Assembly: GCF_013315695.1 (NCBI RefSeq)
Contig: NZ_CP054353.1
From: Escherichia coli
Lineage (GTDB): Bacteria > Pseudomonadota > Gammaproteobacteria > Enterobacterales > Enterobacteriaceae
Direction: 5' to 3' (one strand)
Length of the DNA stretch: 64,000 nucleotides
Part shown: positions 1,299 through 34,681 of the stretch, in pieces
How positions within the stretch are numbered: position 1 is the stretch's first letter
Layout: each line of letters starts with the position of its first letter
Program-made: the position numbers and the translations under genes
Notes under the pieces: model-generated
The model's database searches: none
What the model saw: only the letters and a program-made list of their open reading frames with translations
Told to the model about the DNA's origin: nothing

Positions 1299-2003
1299 AT
1301 GGCTACATCGACAGTAATTCCTGATGACATCAAAACGCTAAAGGGAGATGTCAGTAAGGCAAAGGAAGATATTTCCTCAATTAACGTAAAAGTATCAACG
1401 CTTCAGACTGATATGGACAGTGCAAAGCAGGATATCAGTACCAGATACACAAAAACAGAAGTGGATAATAAGCTGAAAAACAAAGTGGAAGTGAACGATC
1501 TGGAAAGTGGTCGTTATGGCGGAGATTTTTACCCGCTGACTGGCCGTGAAGCGTTTTATTTATGGGGATTGGGCACAACTACAGCGGCGGCAAATCTTTA
1601 TCTTAATCCTGACCCTGCAATTTCGTCTGTGCTGCGGTCAACATCGTCTATCCGCTATAAACATTCAGTAGAGACGATAGATTCAGAGCACGCCGATCTC
1701 ATTTTCAGGATGCGCCCTGTGTGGTACAGGTCGCAATGCGAAAATGACAGGCGTGACTGGGGATTCTATGGATTGATTGCCGAGGAAGTAGGAGAAATTG
1801 CCCCTCAGTTTGTTCACTGGCGACCAGCCAACGAAGATGATGCACCGGAAACCATTTCCAGCAATGGCCTTGTTGCCGAAGGTGTAATGTACGAACGTCT
1901 GGTTGTTCCACTGATTCACCATATCCAGAAACTGACTGAAAGAGTTGATGAACTTGAGTCAGAATTGAAGTTGTTATCAACTTCCCAAAGCGATATCGGA
2001 TAA
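1299..2003 (+). CDS. Short tail-fibre-like protein with C-terminal peptidase-S74-type intramolecular chaperone domain
   Basis: N-terminal coiled-coil-like segment. C-terminal region has an S..R.K motif (SSIRYK) followed by LIFRMRPVWY...GFYGLIAEEVGEIAPQFV...YERLVVPLIHHIQKL, the typical signature of self-cleaving chaperone domains of phage fibres/endosialidases. Confidence 0.55.
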   Translation: MATSTVIPDDIKTLKGDVSKAKEDISSINVKVSTLQTDMDSAKQDISTRYTKTEVDNKLKNKVEVNDLESGRYGGDFYPLTGREAFYLWGLGTTTAAANLYLNPDPAISSVLRSTSSIRYKHSVETIDSEHADLIFRMRPVWYRSQCENDRRDWGFYGLIAEEVGEIAPQFVHWRPANEDDAPETISSNGLVAEGVMYERLVVPLIHHIQKLTERVDELESELKLLSTSQSDIG

Positions 2004-2013
2004 AGGAGGAGTA

Positions 2014-2307
2014 ATGGATATAACACCTTTTCTTCATGCGCTTTGTGCTGTGGCTGCGCAGGTAATGATTGGTCTTTTTGCCGGAAACTGGGTTTACGGG
2101 GCGATAGCCGGTTGTACGTTCTTCATTGCGCGTGAACACACCCAGGCAGAATATCGCTGGATTGAAATGTTCGGGCATGGCAAGTGGATTAACATGCCGT
2201 GGTGGGGCGGTTTTGATCCGCGTGTTTGGGATGTGGCAAGCCTGATAGATTTTGCTGTGCCGGTGGTGGCGTGTCTGCTGGTCTGGCTGTTGGTTAATCG
2301 TGGGTGA
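2014..2307 (+). CDS. Hypothetical small membrane protein (97 aa, about 3 predicted TM helices) of prophage origin
   Basis: Hydrophobic segments (LHALCAVAAQVMIGLFAGNWVYGAIAGCTFFIA; FAVPVVACLLVWLLV). Lies directly after the fibre genes. Confidence 0.35.
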   Translation: MDITPFLHALCAVAAQVMIGLFAGNWVYGAIAGCTFFIAREHTQAEYRWIEMFGHGKWINMPWWGGFDPRVWDVASLIDFAVPVVACLLVWLLVNRG

Positions 2308-2317
2308 AAAAAGGTGA

Positions 2318-2446
2318 GCTGTATATGCAACGGAGGAAGAAACCCCGTTGCTGGAAGCCTGGAAAAAGTATCGGGTGTTGCTGAACCGTGTTGATACATC
2401 AACTGCACCTGATATTGAGTGGCCTACGAACCCTGTCAGGGAGTAA
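2318..2446 (+). pseudogene. Tail fibre assembly protein (Tfa) C-terminal fragment
   Basis: Frame translation ...[38 protein letters not shown] matches the conserved Tfa C-terminus. No N-terminal part upstream, and an in-frame stop at 2315-2317. Confidence 0.55.
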
Positions 2447-2500
2447 TCATTGGGATTATGCCGCAGCACGTCTTAAGCAAGAACGTGCTGCGGTTGGATG

Positions 2501-3169
2501 CTATTTTTTCCCTGAAGCGGAAAACATTACTACAGTACCTTGAACCTTGGTTTTAACATTCTCGAAATGCTCTGAGAGTATATGTGTTAAGCCTTCTTCG
2601 GAATCTTTTGTGTTTGAAAAGATGCCTTTCTGATTGTAAATGCGCATCAGTTTTTGACCGAAGCTATTGTGCACAACTCCATCGCCAAGAATTGTGGCTC
2701 CGTATAGAGTTCCATCGTCAGTTAAGGCCTGCGCCGCATTGCGTATTACACAGCTTTTTGTAGATATATTTCCAGGCAGGCAGTGAAGAAGGTAAAACAT
2801 GGAAATGGAATCAAATTGACCATGTAACGCCGCGGGATAAGGTTCAAAAACATCATGGCTAATTTTATGTTTAATTTTTGATTCCCCAGCCCTTGTAGAT
2901 GCCGCGTTCAGGCTAGCTTCGTTCAAATCCATTAAAGATATCAGACTACTCTCAGGTACGTGAGTAAGGTAAAACCCAGTTCCAACACCAATATCCAGAT
3001 GGTTGTTACCTAAATGTTCCAGAAAGTGTGGAAGAAGGTGTTCCTTTGTAGGACATCCCCATGCAAGCCGATTTGATACTCCCAAAACCCACCAGTCATA
3101 AAGCTTTAGGGTAAGTGGTGTGTAAATTTTAGCCCCATCATCTGTGTTTTTTTTCATTAATTTCACCAT
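2501..3169 (-). CDS. ybcY: SAM-dependent methyltransferase (YbcY-like, prophage-borne)
   Basis: 222-aa ORF with class-I methyltransferase motif I (LDIGVGTGFY). Lies between two tfa fragments, as ybcY does in K-12 DLP12. The ORF is intact here. Confidence 0.6.
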   Translation of the reverse strand: MVKLMKKNTDDGAKIYTPLTLKLYDWWVLGVSNRLAWGCPTKEHLLPHFLEHLGNNHLDIGVGTGFYLTHVPESSLISLMDLNEASLNAASTRAGESKIKHKISHDVFEPYPAALHGQFDSISMFYLLHCLPGNISTKSCVIRNAAQALTDDGTLYGATILGDGVVHNSFGQKLMRIYNQKGIFSNTKDSEEGLTHILSEHFENVKTKVQGTVVMFSASGKK

Positions 3170-5192: not shown

Positions 5193-5322
5193 TGTGTCTC
5201 TGAATATCGGAATAAAGATAAGATTTGAATATATTGAGGTCTTGTGTTGCGGTAAGAGATTACACGTTATGACATAGGTTAAATGCTTACAAAATTAGTG
5301 GATATTGTCTACTTGTAACTGT

Positions 5323-5360
5323 AAACAAATTCCCCGGGGTTATACAATACCACCGGGGAG
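5323..5360 (-). terminator. Rho-independent terminator of ompT
   Basis: Hairpin CCCCGG...CCGGGG followed on the minus strand by TTTGTTT, immediately 3' of the ompT stop. Confidence 0.45.
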
Positions 5361-5378
5361 AAAATCTGGTTAACTTCG

Positions 5379-6332
5379 TTAAAAGGTGTACTTAAGACCA
5401 GCAGTAGTGATGAAGTTATAGTTTTCTATGCCTGCACCATTTTTGCTGTAGTCTGAAGTGTTATCATTGTGATCATAAAGTGAAGTATTACCTTTTTTAT
5501 TCGTAACCCGATTCCATGCGCCTTCAACATAAACTTTTGCGTTAGGTGTTACGTAATAACCTGCATTGACTGCAACAGAATAGTAATTTTGGTCTTTGAC
5601 TTTACTGCGATAAGTGATTCTTTTTCCTGGGTCATAGTGCTCATCGTTATCAGATGCTTCCACCCAGCCGCTGTATTTAAATGTGCCACCTAGCTCAAAA
5701 TCTTCATAACGATAACTTCCAGTCAAGCCAATGTAGGGCATTTTAAAACGTTGTTTGTAGCCGATTGCTCTTTCTCCATTCGGGAAGGAGCCGATATCAT
5801 CTCTGAATCCCTCCTCAGAACTGTAGATATAGGAACCACCTCTGGCTGTAAAGCTATAACGGCTTTCCTGATATCCGGCCATGAGTCCCAGGCGGTAATT
5901 GGGTTCGTTGAGGAGCCAGCCTTTGATATTCAGATCAAATTCGTTGGCATAATTGAGTTGTGTATCAGGGTGCCTACTTTCATCTGTCCAGGTTCCGGGG
6001 TTACTGGAATCCATCCAGTCCTGATCGACCATATTGCCACCTCGGCTGCCGAGAGTAGTCCAGCCCGCAGCCCCAATAGATATCTGGGGCATCAAATCCC
6101 AATTAATTGCACCTTTAATAATTGCAGCGTTATTGAATTTCCAGTCGAGTTGACTGACTTTTCGGCCTCCTTCTTCAGCTAGATAAACGCGCTCTTTTGT
6201 TTTTCCGCTCAGAGTTCCAAGACTAATGTCCGCATTTATGTTGTCAGGAGTAAACGATATAGTCTCGGTAGAAGCAAAAGAGCTGATCGCAATAGGGGTT
6301 GTCAGGACTATTCCCAGAAGTTTCGCCCGCAT
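5379..6332 (-). CDS. ompT: Outer membrane protease OmpT (omptin)
   Basis: 317-aa ORF MRAKLLGIVLTTPIAISSFA...AGLKYTF, recognised as OmpT precursor. Confidence 0.95.
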   Translation of the reverse strand: MRAKLLGIVLTTPIAISSFASTETISFTPDNINADISLGTLSGKTKERVYLAEEGGRKVSQLDWKFNNAAIIKGAINWDLMPQISIGAAGWTTLGSRGGNMVDQDWMDSSNPGTWTDESRHPDTQLNYANEFDLNIKGWLLNEPNYRLGLMAGYQESRYSFTARGGSYIYSSEEGFRDDIGSFPNGERAIGYKQRFKMPYIGLTGSYRYEDFELGGTFKYSGWVEASDNDEHYDPGKRITYRSKVKDQNYYSVAVNAGYYVTPNAKVYVEGAWNRVTNKKGNTSLYDHNDNTSDYSKNGAGIENYNFITTAGLKYTF

Positions 6333-26599: not shown

Positions 26600-27727
<1,128 letters not shown>

Positions 27728-27968
27728 TTATGTTGGCGTTTTCTATTCAGTATAGAAGTGGGAGCGACTGGGCGAGATGCGGAAGTTCTGGAATATTTCT
27801 TTTTTTTGGATGGTGACTGAAGCAAATTGGCTACATTTTGCAATGTGACCAGTTGCGTCATAGCTGGCTGGTGGCGAAGAATTTTGACGATTGCGGCATG
27901 CAGAAAAAAACGGGTTCAGCTTCAGTTGATCAAATGGGGAGTGAGAAGTCCGAAACAGGATTTACTGT

Positions 27969-27976
27969 ATAAATAA
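27969..27976. repeat. Target-site duplication (left copy) ATAAATAA
   Basis: 8-bp direct repeat immediately outside the left terminal inverted repeat; identical copy at 29862-29869. Confidence 0.65.
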
Positions 27977-28004
27977 GGGTCTTCCCCGATCATGGTGGGA
28001 AGAC

Positions 28005-29225
28005 TCAGTACGCCATATTCAGTTTCCCATAGTGGAACATAACTCCCAGTTTAAAGCGTTCCCGGTTTCGGTATCCCCTGGCCTTTATCCTCAGCAGTCT
28101 GATCTTGCTGTTCAGCGCCTCCGCATTTCCATTCGAGACGCGATGACGCATTGCATTCAGTATTCCGTATAACCGTTTTTTAATGGTTTTCGCTGCGTTT
28201 TTCATCATCGGCACATCACATTCAGACGCCAGCGATATCCACTGCAACCAGTCATTCCTGCGTTCTGTGCTCCAGGGGCGATCCCAGATATTTTTTGCCA
28301 GCTCTTTCAGTGTCCAGCACTGGCTTGTCTGTTGCATCTGTTCCCGCAACCACATCAGCTTTTCCTGCCGGGACTCAGTCATCCATTTGTCGCTGTACTG
28401 CCACAGGAAGCGGGTACCTTTGGCCTGACGACGACTTTCAACAGGGAGGTGCGGATGTTCATTCTGGCGGGTTTTATCAACCACTTCGCCCAGTTGCTTC
28501 GCCACATGGAAGCGATCGAAGGCGATTTTCTCGACCGCATTGGGTAAATGGATACGCGCTGCTCTTATATAGCCCGCATTCATGTCCATCGACAGTGTTT
28601 TGATGGCCAACAACTGACTGTCAGTAAGCGAACGGAGATAGCTGGCAAGACTCTCTGTGCCACGATCATCGGTTAATGCCAGTGCCCGCCCGTCGCGATC
28701 AGATACCACGGTTATATACCTATGCCCTTTTTTAAAGGCGACTTCGTCTACATTCATATGACGCACTGATAAAGGCTTTTTAATCCGCGACAGGCCTCGC
28801 TTAACCGCGCGGGTCATGATGCCGTCAACGGCATTCCAGCTAAGTTTAAGTTGTTTTCTGACCGCATCAACGGTGCTGATTTTAAGCCATGAGAGCACGA
28901 ACGATTCGAACAGCAGAGTGTACCGACTGCCGGAACCTGCCCACGGTACAGGCAGAGTCTGGCAGCCATGCTCCGGGCACATAACGCGGGGAACATCGGC
29001 TTCTACTAATGTCATGAACTGGCAGGTATCAAGGTGGCGCCATTTACGATGTCGGTGATCGTGAACAGAACAGGATTTCCTGCAGGTCGGACAGGTTAAC
29101 TGAGTATTTTCAGCAATTCCGACTGTAACAGTAACGGAACCTGCATTTTCATCGAGGGTAAGGGATTTAACCTGCCATGGTGCAGTCAGGTTAAGGATAT
29201 GGGCATAGAGGGATTTTTCGTCCAT
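28005..29225 (-). CDS. ISL3-family transposase
   Basis: 406 aa. N-terminal Cys/His-rich zinc-finger-like region (CPTCRKSCSVHDHRHRKWRHLD...CPEHGC) followed by a DDE-type core, typical of IS204/IS1001/IS1096/IS1165 transposases. Confidence 0.85.
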   Translation of the reverse strand: MDEKSLYAHILNLTAPWQVKSLTLDENAGSVTVTVGIAENTQLTCPTCRKSCSVHDHRHRKWRHLDTCQFMTLVEADVPRVMCPEHGCQTLPVPWAGSGSRYTLLFESFVLSWLKISTVDAVRKQLKLSWNAVDGIMTRAVKRGLSRIKKPLSVRHMNVDEVAFKKGHRYITVVSDRDGRALALTDDRGTESLASYLRSLTDSQLLAIKTLSMDMNAGYIRAARIHLPNAVEKIAFDRFHVAKQLGEVVDKTRQNEHPHLPVESRRQAKGTRFLWQYSDKWMTESRQEKLMWLREQMQQTSQCWTLKELAKNIWDRPWSTERRNDWLQWISLASECDVPMMKNAAKTIKKRLYGILNAMRHRVSNGNAEALNSKIRLLRIKARGYRNRERFKLGVMFHYGKLNMAY

Positions 29226-29243
29226 ATAATTTCATTCTGAAGC

Positions 29244-29762
29244 TTACTTTAAACTGATATTATTATTTTTTGCCCACTTTCTTAATCTTCCATTAGCGTT
29301 GGCGTAAGGCGAAGATGTGTTAAATGAGATCATTCTCCCCATCGTCCATTTTGTGTACCATGGTCTTCCATACAAAATATCATCGGTACGATCATTAATA
29401 AGGTTCACAATCTCATTTTTTACAGTCTGAAGTTCAGCTACTAACAACTCATAACTTAACTCACTGTAATCTGAGTAAAATTTTTGAGCAAGAAGGCCAA
29501 GCTGATTCCATTTATAGCCAGTTTCCGGAAAATCGACAGGCAGACCTTTAGCATCAGAAGCGATCCACTTTACAACAAGAGCATTCCATCCAAGCAGATA
29601 CGAAACGAGATCACGAACACTCATCTCCGTTCCTTTGGCGTGTCCGTCCATTGATTTATCTGAAGTAATTTCTGGTGGGATTGTGTTGAGGTAACTAATT
29701 AATTTACTAAAATTTTTATCAATAGCTAAAAGCAGTTCAGCTTTTGTTTGCGGCACACTCAT
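29244..29762 (-). CDS. ClbS-like / DUF1706 family protein (passenger gene inside the IS)
   Basis: 172-aa ORF with features recalled for the colibactin self-resistance protein ClbS family (GHAKGT, VSYLLGW, YGRPWYTKWTMGRMISFNTSSPY...NISLK C-terminus). Located between the transposase 5' end and the right IR. Confidence 0.6.
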   Translation of the reverse strand: MSVPQTKAELLLAIDKNFSKLISYLNTIPPEITSDKSMDGHAKGTEMSVRDLVSYLLGWNALVVKWIASDAKGLPVDFPETGYKWNQLGLLAQKFYSDYSELSYELLVAELQTVKNEIVNLINDRTDDILYGRPWYTKWTMGRMISFNTSSPYANANGRLRKWAKNNNISLK

Positions 29763-29861
29763 AAGAATTCCCTCTCATGTAAAAAGAGACACCATAAAGG
29801 TACTGTGTGGTGTTTGAAAATCACTCAATTATGTACCACCCACCACAACAGGGGAAGACCC

Positions 29862-29869
29862 ATAAATAA
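29862..29869. repeat. Target-site duplication (right copy) ATAAATAA
   Basis: Identical to 27969-27976, immediately outside the right IR. Confidence 0.65.
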
Positions 29870-29884
29870 ACAGTTATTTTGTTG

Positions 29885-29950
29885 AGGAAGGGTAAGATAA
29901 CTGCGGGTGCCTGAAGCTTTCCGGTTTCAGGTTTACTTTGAGGTCTGGAA
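29885..29950 (-). ncRNA. sokE: Putative sokE antisense RNA of the hokE type I toxin-antitoxin locus (position approximate)
   Basis: Inferred from hok/sok locus architecture (antisense to the mok start/hok leader). Boundaries not determined from sequence. Confidence 0.25.
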
Positions 29951-30204
29951 AGATGAAGCCCCAGGAGATATTTCTATCAACCCTGGGGCTGCCACTCCAA
30001 ACCCGAACAATTTGGATGGTAGTCCCTTCTTCGCATGGAGGCAATATAAACATGCTGACGAAATATGCCCTTGTGGCAGTCATAGTGCTGTGTTTAACGG
30101 TGCTGGGATTTACGCTTCTGGTCGGAGACTCGCTGTGTGAGTTTACGGTGAAGGAACGTAATATTGAGTTTAAGGCTGTTCTCGCTTACGAACCGAAGAA
30201 GTAG
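29938..30204 (+). CDS. mokE: mokE, overlapping reading frame that mediates hokE translation
   Basis: 88-codon frame that runs through and ends with hokE, as in hok/mok loci. True start uncertain. Confidence 0.4.
30052..30204 (+). CDS. hokE: HokE type I toxin (Hok/Gef family)
   Basis: 50 aa, [50 protein letters not shown]. Followed by hairpin TGCGGGGAGTAATCCCCGCA (30207-30227). Confidence 0.85.
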
Positions 30205-30325
30205 CCGCTGTGCGGGGAGTAATCCCCGCATATCCGGTTGTCAGGTCAGGATGGTAAGGCACCTGCTTTACACTTTCGCCCGCGGTCAGCAATGGCTGCG
30301 GGCGAATCGTACCAGATGTTGTCAA

Positions 30326-30946
30326 TTAATCGTGTTGGCACAGCGTTATGACTATTTTTTCTTTTATCTGCCAGTGCACAGCAAACTGCTCATCCTCTAG
30401 TCGAATGATGATCTGCTGTTTATTCCAGCTAATTATCTGATAATCCAGAAAACCTTGAGCGGCCTGTATCTTGCTTGCCTTAAATGCGCTCTCTTTGGCG
30501 GAAAATGCCAGTGTCAGCGCCAGAGAAAAGGTTAAACCGCATTCTGCGAGTCGCTCGTGTTCTGCTGGTGTAATAATGTTGTCTGTCAATTCTCTAGCGG
30601 TTTGTACAGAGAAAATCTCTTCGATATCAATGCCAATCGGTTGACGAGATACCACGGCTAATGCCGTAGTCCCATAGTGACTAATGCTGCCGTATACCCC
30701 CGCAGGCCACACAGGTTGGCGTAGCTCGCCGATTGCGGGCACACATTTATAGCCATATTCCCGCAGCGCATAAACTGCAGCGATCCGTCCGGCTAAATGC
30801 TCTGTTTTACGTTTACGTCCAGCGTGTTGCAGTTGCGCGTAGTGCGGCAGCCAGAGTAAATCCTGCTCGCGAAAACTCGCAGGATCGAACTCAACAAAAT
30901 GCAGCGTATGTCCGGTAAAGGGGAGGGCGGTATGCGTAGTTTTCAT
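30326..30946 (-). CDS. entD: Enterobactin synthase phosphopantetheinyl transferase EntD
   Basis: 206 aa, MKTTHTALPFTGHTLHFVEFDPASF... Confidence 0.9.
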   Translation of the reverse strand: MKTTHTALPFTGHTLHFVEFDPASFREQDLLWLPHYAQLQHAGRKRKTEHLAGRIAAVYALREYGYKCVPAIGELRQPVWPAGVYGSISHYGTTALAVVSRQPIGIDIEEIFSVQTARELTDNIITPAEHERLAECGLTFSLALTLAFSAKESAFKASKIQAAQGFLDYQIISWNKQQIIIRLEDEQFAVHWQIKEKIVITLCQHD

Positions 30947-33478: not shown

Positions 33479-34681
33479 GTGACGGCGTTAAAAGTAGGAA
33501 GTGAGAGCTGGTGGCAGTCGAAACATGGCCCGGAATGGCAGCGTCTGAATGACGAAATGTTTGAGGTCACTTTCTGGTGGCGTGATCCCCAAGGTTCTGA
33601 AGAATACTCGACGATAAAGCGCGTATGGGTCTACATCACTGGTGTGACCGATCACCATCAGAACACCCAGCCCCGGTCGATGCAGCGAATTGCAGGAACC
33701 GATGTTTGGCAGTGGACGACACAACTCAATGCCAACTGGCGCGGCAGCTACTGCTTTATTCCTACCGAACGCGATGACATTTTTTCTGCACCATCCCCCG
33801 ATCGCCTCGAATTACGCGAAGGCTGGCGAAAACTATTACCCCAGGCGATAGCCGATCCGCTGAATCCACAAAGCTGGAAAGGCGGGCGAGGGCACGCTGT
33901 TTCTGCACTCGAAATGCCGCAAGCGCCTCTGCAACCGGGATGGGATTGTCCGCAAGCGCCAGAAACGCCTGCCAAAGAAATTATCTGGAAAAGTGAGCGG
34001 TTGAAAAATTCACGCCGTGTATGGATTTTTACCACCGGCGATGCAACAGCAGAAGAACGCCCGCTGGCAGTTTTGCTTGATGGCGAATTTTGGGCGCAGA
34101 GTATGCCCGTCTGGCCTGCGCTAACTTCGCTGACCCATCGTCGGCAACTTCCTCCCGCCGTGTATGTGTTGATCGATGCTATCGACACCACGCACCGCGC
34201 CCACGAACTGCCGTGTAATGCGGATTTCTGGCTGGCAGTACAGCAAGAGTTATTACCCCTGGTGAAAGCTATTGCCTCTTTTAGCGATCGCGCCGATCGC
34301 ACCGTGGTCGCCGGGCAGAGTTTTGGTGGGCTTTCTGCGCTGTATGCCGGACTAAACTGGCCTGAACGCTTTGGCTGTGTATTAAGCCAGTCAGGATCGT
34401 ACTGGTGGCCGCATCGGGGCGGGCAGCAAGAAGGTGTTTTACTTGAGCAACTTAAAGCTGGTGAAGTTAGCGCCGAAGGTCTGCGCATTGTGCTGGAAGC
34501 GGGTATTCGCGAGCCGATGATCATGCGGGCCAATCAGGCGCTGTATGCGCAATTACACCTCATAAAAGAATCCATTTTCTGGCGTCAGGTTGACGGCGGA
34601 CATGATGCGCTTTGTTGGCGCGGTGGCTTGATGCAGGGGCTAATCGACCTCTGGCAACCACTTTTCCATGACAGGAGTTGA
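33479..34681 (+). CDS. fes: Enterochelin esterase Fes
   Basis: 400-aa ORF from a GTG start (MTALKVGSESWWQSKHGPEW...), esterase motif GQSFGG. Confidence 0.9.
   Translation: MTALKVGSESWWQSKHGPEWQRLNDEMFEVTFWWRDPQGSEEYSTIKRVWVYITGVTDHHQNTQPRSMQRIAGTDVWQWTTQLNANWRGSYCFIPTERDDIFSAPSPDRLELREGWRKLLPQAIADPLNPQSWKGGRGHAVSALEMPQAPLQPGWDCPQAPETPAKEIIWKSERLKNSRRVWIFTTGDATAEERPLAVLLDGEFWAQSMPVWPALTSLTHRRQLPPAVYVLIDAIDTTHRAHELPCNADFWLAVQQELLPLVKAIASFSDRADRTVVAGQSFGGLSALYAGLNWPERFGCVLSQSGSYWWPHRGGQQEGVLLEQLKAGEVSAEGLRIVLEAGIREPMIMRANQALYAQLHLIKESIFWRQVDGGHDALCWRGGLMQGLIDLWQPLFHDRS

Follow-up and report, generated by a model that had tools for sequence, protein, structure and literature searches.

ISEc53 splits the LexA operator of Escherichia coli hokE: evidence for an insertion sequence clade that appears to integrate in SOS boxes

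The stretch of DNA studied here, 64,000 nucleotides of the Escherichia coli contig NZ_CP054353.1 (assembly GCF_013315695.1; hereafter the window, with positions counted from its first letter), carries at its ybdK–hokE–entD–fepA locus a copy of the insertion sequence (IS) ISEc53, placed between ybdK and the type I toxin gene hokE. Our analysis reveals that this element has interrupted hokE's SOS box, i.e., the operator bound by the repressor LexA, and that other copies of ISEc53 and of its close relatives ISKox3 and ISCfr12 occupy the operators of other SOS genes in the same register. Taken together, these observations are in our judgment well explained by an SOS-box-specific element having split the hokE operator, and we hold this explanation of the locus to be likely. 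The likeliest effect would be that hokE has lost its SOS/LexA control and not its promoter.

ISEc53, a member of the ISL3 family, spans 1885 bp on the minus strand (27977–29861), as delimited by its imperfect terminal inverted repeats (27977–27999 and 29839–29861, beginning GGGTCTTCCCC), by the naming of the Prokaryotic Genome Annotation Pipeline (PGAP) in 100%-identical genomes and by its Pfam domains. On either side lies one copy of an exact 8-bp direct repeat, ATAAATAA, the left at 27969–27976 and the right at 29862–29869; the left copy is preceded by tTACTGT, of which CTGT stands at 27965–27968, and the right one is followed by ACAG at 29870–29873, overlapping the -35 region of the inferred hokE promoter. 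Deletion of the IS together with one copy of the repeat rebuilds an empty site, which we used as a 718-bp query against 5,426 complete E. coli genomes. It was recovered uninterrupted (at least 80% coverage) in 4,887 of them, in one case at 100% identity, and K-12 and the other uninterrupted sites have a single ATAAATAA with the box core CTGTATAAATAAACAG (the K-12 empty site reads caCTGTATAAATAAACAGct). The insertion is hence real and precise, as K-12 and ~4,890 other genomes have a site that is whole and contains ATAAATAA just once.

The rebuilt site has the layout TACTGT-ATAAATAA-ACAGTT, the two half-sites of which are now 1.9 kb apart, and the motif CTGT-N8-ACAG occurs just once in the 4.1-kb ybdK–entD locus fetched from K-12 (L001). 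We scored it with a LexA position-weight matrix made from 16 published boxes (PMC3009722, Table 4), which themselves range from 14 to 28 bits: the reconstructed site of the window lineage, TACTGTATAAATAAACAGTT, attains 26.9 bits, the tisB operator 28.2 bits and the K-12 hokE box 22.3 bits. In the literature, hokE is a classical gene of the LexA regulon, with a LexA box heterology index of 4.9 (PMC11228462; PMC6590174; PMC2826370; PMC11951105), and the 16-nt core of its box is the same as that of the tisB/istR-2 operator of LexA binding studies (PMC3159453; PMC3009722, Table 4). As the empty site matches a published box and has this score, the duplicated ATAAATAA is, on its sequence, the 8-bp spacer of a CTGT-N8-ACAG operator and not a -10-like hexamer, as which the earlier note on this DNA had read it. 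Two ways in which the operator might have survived were considered and ruled out: the IS ends do not rebuild a LexA box at the junctions, which score 1.7 bits (left) and 0.4 bits (right), and the IS does not bring a box of its own, there being nothing box-like at or above 4 bits within it. We are very confident of the structural account that follows, namely that ISEc53 would have made staggered cuts at the borders of the AT-rich spacer, such that the spacer became the duplication and CTGT and ACAG ended up on opposite sides of the IS.

A comparable picture emerges from other copies of the element. These were retrieved by IS-internal sequence only, i.e., by the exact transposase protein or, in metagenome contigs, by the 28-nt IS end (55 loci), and near-identical flanks were collapsed into 28 left and 13 right clusters. 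Nearly all sampled copies display taCTGT and N8 on one side and the same N8 and ACAGta on the other: CTGT falls exactly at -12 to -9 in 20 of the 28 left-flank clusters (binomial P = 2e-42) and ACAG at +9 to +12 in 11 of the 13 right-flank clusters (P = 3e-25). The resulting flank consensus, ATACTGTATATATAT...ATATATATACAGTAT, is that of the LexA box, and the window copy conforms to it, with a duplication equal to N8. What varies and is duplicated is the N8, with CTGT and ACAG beyond it; these two motifs hence belong to the target DNA and not to the element. The occupied sites include the published umuDC and sbmC operators (TACTGTATATAAAAACAGTA), the latter in both orientations (L014, L069), as well as prophage and plasmid boxes; the genes found 28–36 nt from the junctions encode UmuD, SbmC and DinI-like proteins.

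ISEc53, ISCfr12 and ISKox3 form a tight clade within the ISL3 family, judged by their transposases (at least 90% identical), and the two relatives behave alike. ISKox3 was found at 11 distinct sites, each of them a box with a perfect duplication; in two cases the right half-site has one mismatch. Among these sites are the tisB operator (TTTACTGT-ATAAATAA-ACAGTAAT) of E. coli sequence type (ST) 167, the dinD operator, sbmC and umuDC of several species, and, on IncX3 blaNDM-5 plasmids, a box that precedes a dinI/umuD-like operon. Boxes also hold ISCfr12 (94% identical) and further copies on Klebsiella/Salmonella plasmids. With one exception, the 22 distinct sites verified by their duplication reach 15.8 bits or more when scored with the LexA matrix (21 of 22), the 99.99th percentile of random sequence being 7.3 bits; three further duplication-verified sites are CTGT-N8-ACAG or one mismatch away from it. 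When a single genome of each species was scanned for the ISEc53 end, the only match was in a metagenome-assembled genome. As a separate observation, an ISKox3-like element next to umuD on the K. pneumoniae plasmid CP151661.1 (L089; IS at 1734–3048) is bordered by two different half-boxes, CTGT ATATATAA and TTATTTAT ACAG, with no matching duplication, which suggests that it arose by recombination of two IS copies residing in two SOS boxes.

It might be argued that the repeated ISEc53–hokE junction represents one ancestral insertion spread by descent or recombination, with CTGT and ACAG being borne by the element or favored by biased sampling. Three of the five genomes with the hokE insertion are indeed 100% identical over the region, and many of the metagenome matches represent a single plasmid site (ATATACAT, n = 21). 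Yet the N8 between CTGT and the IS tip is not constant among copies and recurs at the opposite IS end; the empty sites are the published operators of hokE, tisB, sbmC, umuDC and dinD; the 28 left and 13 right clusters are what is left once near-identical flanks are collapsed; and no sequence outside the IS was used for retrieval. Further, the hokE insertion occupies the first copy in one tandem array and the second in another, between flanks that differ, and sbmC was struck in opposite orientations (L014 versus L069). We hence regard such an origin of the pattern as highly improbable.

What the insertion does to hokE depends on where its promoter lies. The hok leader model of Rfam (RF01794, sense strand) matches 29905–30060 over its full length (model positions 1–157) with 83.5 bits against a gathering score of 59. 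The predicted full-length hokE mRNA (29903–30312, plus strand), as delimited by this match and by its fold, has a minimum free energy of -176.4 kcal/mol (z = -7.5 versus shuffles). In this fold, the 5' element GCGGGUGCCU (29903–29912) pairs with the 3' fold-back element AGGCACCUGC (30257–30266), which comes just before the terminal hairpin (30275–30306); such a closed 5'/3' fold-back is as seen in full-length hok mRNAs. Finally, R1-type plasmid hok can be aligned with hokE position by position (R1, GGGCTATGATGTGCCC/GGCGCTTGAGGC; hokE, AGGGTAAGATAACTGC/GGGTGCCTGAAGC), whereby the candidate hokE -10 hexamer TAAGAT (29893–29898, plus strand) is assigned by homology to the TATGAT of R1-type hok. 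We take the R1 hok transcript to start at GGCGC, in agreement with the start of the Rfam model. Thus, the Rfam start, the fold-back pairing and the R1 alignment are three lines that agree in placing the predicted start near 29905 and the putative -10 at 29893–29898. The box core, GGGTAAGATAAC, the putative -10 hexamer and the leader start are all invariant across six hokE copies, tandem duplicates included.

On this placement, the IS end (29861) lies ~42–44 nt upstream of the predicted 5' end of the mRNA; the operator spanned about -47 to -32 relative to the predicted start, over the -35 region; and all candidate -35 hexamers, being at 29867 or downstream, were kept after the insertion. The antisense RNA sokE (29949–30008, minus strand; coordinates carried over from the RefSeq annotation of K-12) has the same sequence as the annotated K-12 region and is predicted to fold into a 5' tail and a hairpin. 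Its putative promoter, also on the minus strand, comprises a -35 TTGCCT (30039–30044), a 17-bp spacer and a -10 TACCAT (30016–30021), a combination listed for this spacer in a study of RpoD by systematic evolution of ligands by exponential enrichment (PMC3946193). The sokE gene and its promoter, the leader, the inferred -10 and the 3' elements are untouched by the IS. The earlier note had the IS sitting where the hokE promoter or 5' leader is expected and perhaps separating the gene from its native promoter. The transcriptional control region was indeed struck and its operator destroyed, but the leader is uninterrupted and the inferred core promoter lies entirely downstream of 29862; relative to 29869, the position that the note had set for a native promoter left whole, the core promoter placed by homology probably comes close to lying wholly downstream.

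A different promoter assignment would change the outcome. Were TATAAAT, within the operator, the true -10, it would be occluded by bound LexA, and the IS would have split the promoter and silenced hokE transcriptionally, with the left junction keeping a promoter that points into the IS and the right junction retaining only cATAAAT without a -35. This draws on the 5/6 match of TATAAA(T) to the -10 consensus, on a block, AGAAGTCCGAAA, that all hokE copies conserve and that begins ~22 nt before the box, and on the want of a good -35 for a TAAGAT promoter. It has to contend with the position-by-position homology of GGGTAAGATAACTGC-GGGTGCC to the -10 and start of R1 hok (GGGCTATGATGTGCCC-GGCGC), with the start of the Rfam model at 29905, with the pairing of the 5'-terminal element with the 3' fold-back exactly from 29903, and with the sequence 17 bp upstream of TATAAA, GAAGTC/AGTCCG, which is unlike any -35. 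On balance, a promoter split of this kind, including the fates of the two junctions, seems to us unlikely.

Several points nevertheless weigh against a LexA operator lost with its promoter kept, and against strict operator targeting. The position of the hokE promoter is drawn from homology to R1 hok and from RNA structure, and not from a mapped start; a consensus promoter scan of 29700–30340 returned no sigma-70 promoter at threshold for either hokE or sokE, and direct reading found no good -35 for the TAAGAT promoter. Part of the box, TATAAAT, comes near the -10 consensus, and were it the real -10, the IS would have cut the promoter. Further, the GC-rich IS end that replaced the DNA upstream of -43 could lower, not raise, promoter activity. 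Recent RNA-seq of K-12 saw no LexA-dependent induction of hokE (0.47-fold; PMC11228462), which makes the in vivo strength of the operator at hokE uncertain; the 3' end of K-12 hokE is also truncated by IS186. As for the target, there are ISEc53 copies outside boxes, namely L009 (GCTTATCG, with no resemblance to a box) and L046/L047 (an odd site), and the well-known fimB::ISEc53 insertion of ST131 lies in a degenerate half-box with an (AT)4 spacer, GTGT-ATATATAT-CCAT. Such a half-box would speak somewhat more for a transposase that recognizes its target directly than for recruitment by bound LexA, and the transposase itself may be what reads the half-sites. In several assemblies of the fimB insertion (L005/L007/L011/L035/L055), the left junction is short of 2 bp of the AT repeat.

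Accordingly worded with due caution, we advance the following plausible course of events at hokE. ISEc53 split a strong SOS box located ~32–47 nt upstream of the predicted mRNA start, over the -35 region, with all that lies downstream of -43 unchanged (the candidate -35 and -10, the leader, the sokE gene and its promoter, the open reading frame (ORF), the fold-back element and the terminator). The transcription of hokE would thereby have been placed beyond LexA repression and induction by DNA damage, and it would probably run constitutively from a weak core promoter, with SokE and the folding of the mRNA still providing a post-transcriptional check. We consider this predicted regulatory outcome, a LexA-blind hokE with a retained promoter, to be probable. 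As to the clade as a whole, we find it somewhat better than an even chance that ISEc53, ISCfr12 and ISKox3 use the LexA operator as an essentially obligate integration site, with each transposition freeing one SOS gene from LexA. The availability of targets may then depend on LexA occupancy, coupling the landing of the IS to the DNA-damage state of the cell.

The distribution of the insertion bears on whether selection has to be invoked. ISEc53 is present in 656 of the 5,426 complete genomes and occupies the hokE box in five. These five, together with a further assembly found via the transposase protein (L006), show at least three arrangements, among which neither the insertion point nor the orientation of the IS differs: ybdK-IS-hokE-entD in the window and MS 21-1 type, and with divergent flanks in L006; ybdK-IS-IS150-hokE-hokE in the ST131 strain 2017_APHA, whose second copy keeps an intact box; and ybdK-hokE-IS-hokE-entD in ATCC 43896, whose first copy does so. 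Because there are at least three distinct arrangements, the hokE site was struck more than once, as a sequence-specific IS predicts and with no need for selection against the toxin. The tandem hokE pairs, in which each copy has its own LexA box, are at 2213–2365 and 4609–4761 of L003 and at 5281–5433 and 5783–5935 of L002 (ATCC 43896 and ST131 2017_APHA), and the homology of their repeat units starts ~22 nt upstream of the box (AGAAGTCCGAAA). The IS150 of 2017_APHA (L002, 3814–5183) lies between ISEc53 and the first hokE, in the leader/sokE region, which puts two different ISs upstream of that copy. The one genome with an empty hokE site 100% identical to the rebuilt one, NZ_OZ546925.1, has ISEc53 elsewhere.

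At the other end of the gene, IS186B of K-12 (L001, 2508–3852) starts 18 nt past the hokE stop, having entered the hairpin GCGGGGAGTAATCCCCGC at its loop and 3' arm. It is flanked by an 11-bp duplication, GGAGTAATCCC, and shifts the 3' fold-back element and the terminator 1.3 kb away. The hairpin is GC-rich, of the form GGGG-N6-CCCC, which is the known preferred type of target for IS186; the K-12 insertion is thus another instance, at the same locus, of an IS placed according to its target preference. A similar IS186 (IS421) junction adjoins mokC (hit H73). The K-12-type junction is found in 1,741 of the 5,426 genomes (32%), and the absence of IS186 from the window can be dismissed as anything unusual, given that 68% are without that junction. 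The window does not have the K-12-type hokE::IS186 allele, its hairpin at 30212–30229 (plus strand) being intact, just as the earlier note had observed in reporting the hairpin as present, no IS186 between hokE and entD, and an IS different from that of K-12 at the same locus (ISEc53 here, IS186 in K-12).

The same note went on to suggest that the insertion may have cut hokE off from its own promoter, or have produced a hybrid one reading out of the IS, and that this would be a convergent, IS-mediated disruption of a type I toxin; on such a view, selection would have driven the inactivation of chromosomal Hok toxins. In its favor, the control region was indeed entered, with 191 nt between the IS and hokE; other hokE loci bear ISs too, namely IS186 in K-12 and, ahead of one hokE copy of an ST131 strain, both ISEc53 and IS150; and ISEc53 recurs at the same hokE position in several backgrounds. 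Against this stand the core promoter, placed by homology to R1, and the full leader, both of which lie downstream of the insertion; the lack of any outward sigma-70 promoter at the IS end at the threshold of the scan, together with IS genes that face away from hokE; and the rarity of the hokE insertion (five of 5,426 genomes), which speaks against strong selection. Target specificity accounts for the recurrence, with umuDC, sbmC, dinD, tisB and plasmid SOS operons struck in the same register. We therefore find this scenario distinctly unlikely; the apparent convergence is better explained by the target preferences of two ISs, the ISEc53 clade entering the SOS boxes of many non-toxin genes.

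With respect to the gene itself, the hokE ORF (30052–30204, plus strand; ATG at 30052, not 30053, and stop ending at 30204) encodes an intact 50-aa toxin of the Hok/Gef family, as had been claimed, with a Pfam HOK_GEF match of 34 bits against a cut-off of 22 and one residue different from K-12 HokE (A8V); PGAP calls the gene hokE in identical genomes. The overlapping mok frame that was also reported could not be recovered: no out-of-frame ATG-started ORF overlaps hokE. The sole out-of-frame ORF over it, 29907–30140, has a GTG start at the 5' end of the mRNA; the upstream ATGs at 29953 and 30016 are both in the hokE frame; the R1 mok ATG has no counterpart in the alignment of hokE with R1-type hok; and mokE is annotated neither in RefSeq K-12 nor by PGAP. 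Neither hokE nor sokE figures in the supplements of Kim et al. 2012, where a mapped hokE start was sought. The neighboring genes ybdK (26600–27718), entD (30326–30946) and fepA (from 30996) are all on the minus strand. Downstream of fepA lies the best remaining LexA-like match of the 64-kb window, GGCTGTGTATTAAGCCAGTC (34373–34392; 13.2 bits).

The element encodes two proteins, both genes being on the minus strand and oriented away from hokE, whose ATG is separated from the right IS end by 191 nt. The transposase (406 aa; 28005–29225) has the domains DDE_Tnp_ISL3, Zn_ribbon_ISL3 and HTH_Tnp_ISL3, with Pfam scores of 199, 46 and 41 bits, respectively. The passenger gene (29244–29762) codes for a 172-aa four-helix-bundle protein of the ClbS/DfsB family (DUF1706). 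ClbS is a colibactin self-protection protein; a DNA-damage-related cargo on an IS aimed at DNA-damage operators is a thematic coincidence. A LexA-like DNA-binding domain in the transposase was considered and rejected. Residues 280–334 (28226–28390) do align with the N-terminal DNA-binding domain of E. coli LexA (BLASTP, 27% over 62 aa, E = 0.008 in a single comparison), but the match lies inside the DDE domain and there is no Pfam LexA domain. The similarity is probably a chance one, which we retain as a lead on the reading of half-sites and not as evidence.

The LexA box of hokE and the IS186 at K-12 hokE are already known, and ISEc53 at hokE is by itself a minor, strain-level fact. For LexA-operator targeting by ISEc53, ISKox3 and ISCfr12, we found no description in the searchable literature (ISfinder and subscription journals lying outside the search), and such operator-specific integration appears to be undescribed. 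With each insertion, a global stress regulon loses one of its operators, that of hokE here and those of umuDC, sbmC, dinD, tisB and plasmid mutagenesis operons elsewhere. If true, an SOS-box-homing clade would represent a new kind of target choice, directed at the operator of a global stress repressor, and would explain the recurrent 'hot-spot' insertions beside umuDC, sbmC, tisB and dinD. It would also offer clinical Enterobacteriaceae, NDM plasmids included, a natural route by which genes for error-prone polymerase, gyrase inhibition and persistence become constitutively expressed; ISKox3 sits on the globally spread IncX3 blaNDM-5 plasmids. What looks like convergent IS inactivation at hok loci can thus be a by-product of IS target preference and not of selection. 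The locus of the window is not another dead chromosomal hok copy, its toxin/antitoxin cassette being intact and its SOS link probably cut. MS 21-1, with the IS, and NZ_OZ546925.1, with the 100% identical empty site, provide a natural near-isogenic pair for studying the role of the LexA control of hokE.

Set against known systems, hokE shares with parB of R1 and with the chromosomal hokA–E of K-12 the Hok/Gef ORF, the RF01794 leader, the 5'/3' fold-back, an antisense Sok with its own promoter and the post-ORF hairpin. It differs in having a LexA operator over the -35 region, which is split by the IS here, and no R1-like out-of-frame ATG for mok is evident; K-12 hokE is instead truncated at its 3' end by IS186. 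The placement of toxin transcription under a LexA box is a feature in common with tisB/istR-1, dinQ/agrB and symE/symR, and the core of the hokE box, CTGTATAAATAAACAG, is that of the tisB operator; the box of hokE is destroyed in the window strain, and in other strains it is the tisB operator that is split, by the sister element ISKox3 and in an identical register. Within their clade, ISKox3 and ISCfr12 resemble ISEc53 in their transposases (90–94% identical, 90% for ISKox3), termini, 8-bp duplication and CTGT-N8-ACAG target. ISKox3 differs in being 1316 bp long, ISEc53 exceeding it by 569 bp, and in lacking the ClbS/DfsB gene, which in ISEc53 sits between the transposase start and the right inverted repeat. 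Other sequence-specific ISs include IS1397 and ISKpn1, which enter palindromes of the repetitive extragenic palindromic and bacterial interspersed mosaic element (REP/BIME) type, IS10/Tn10, with its symmetric hot-spot consensus, and IS186, with GGGG-N6-CCCC. Like these, the ISEc53 clade uses a symmetric motif in a fixed register with a staggered cut, and its targets are intergenic and palindromic. Unlike them, its motif is the operator of a global repressor, and the bases recognized lie outside the duplication, flanking it.

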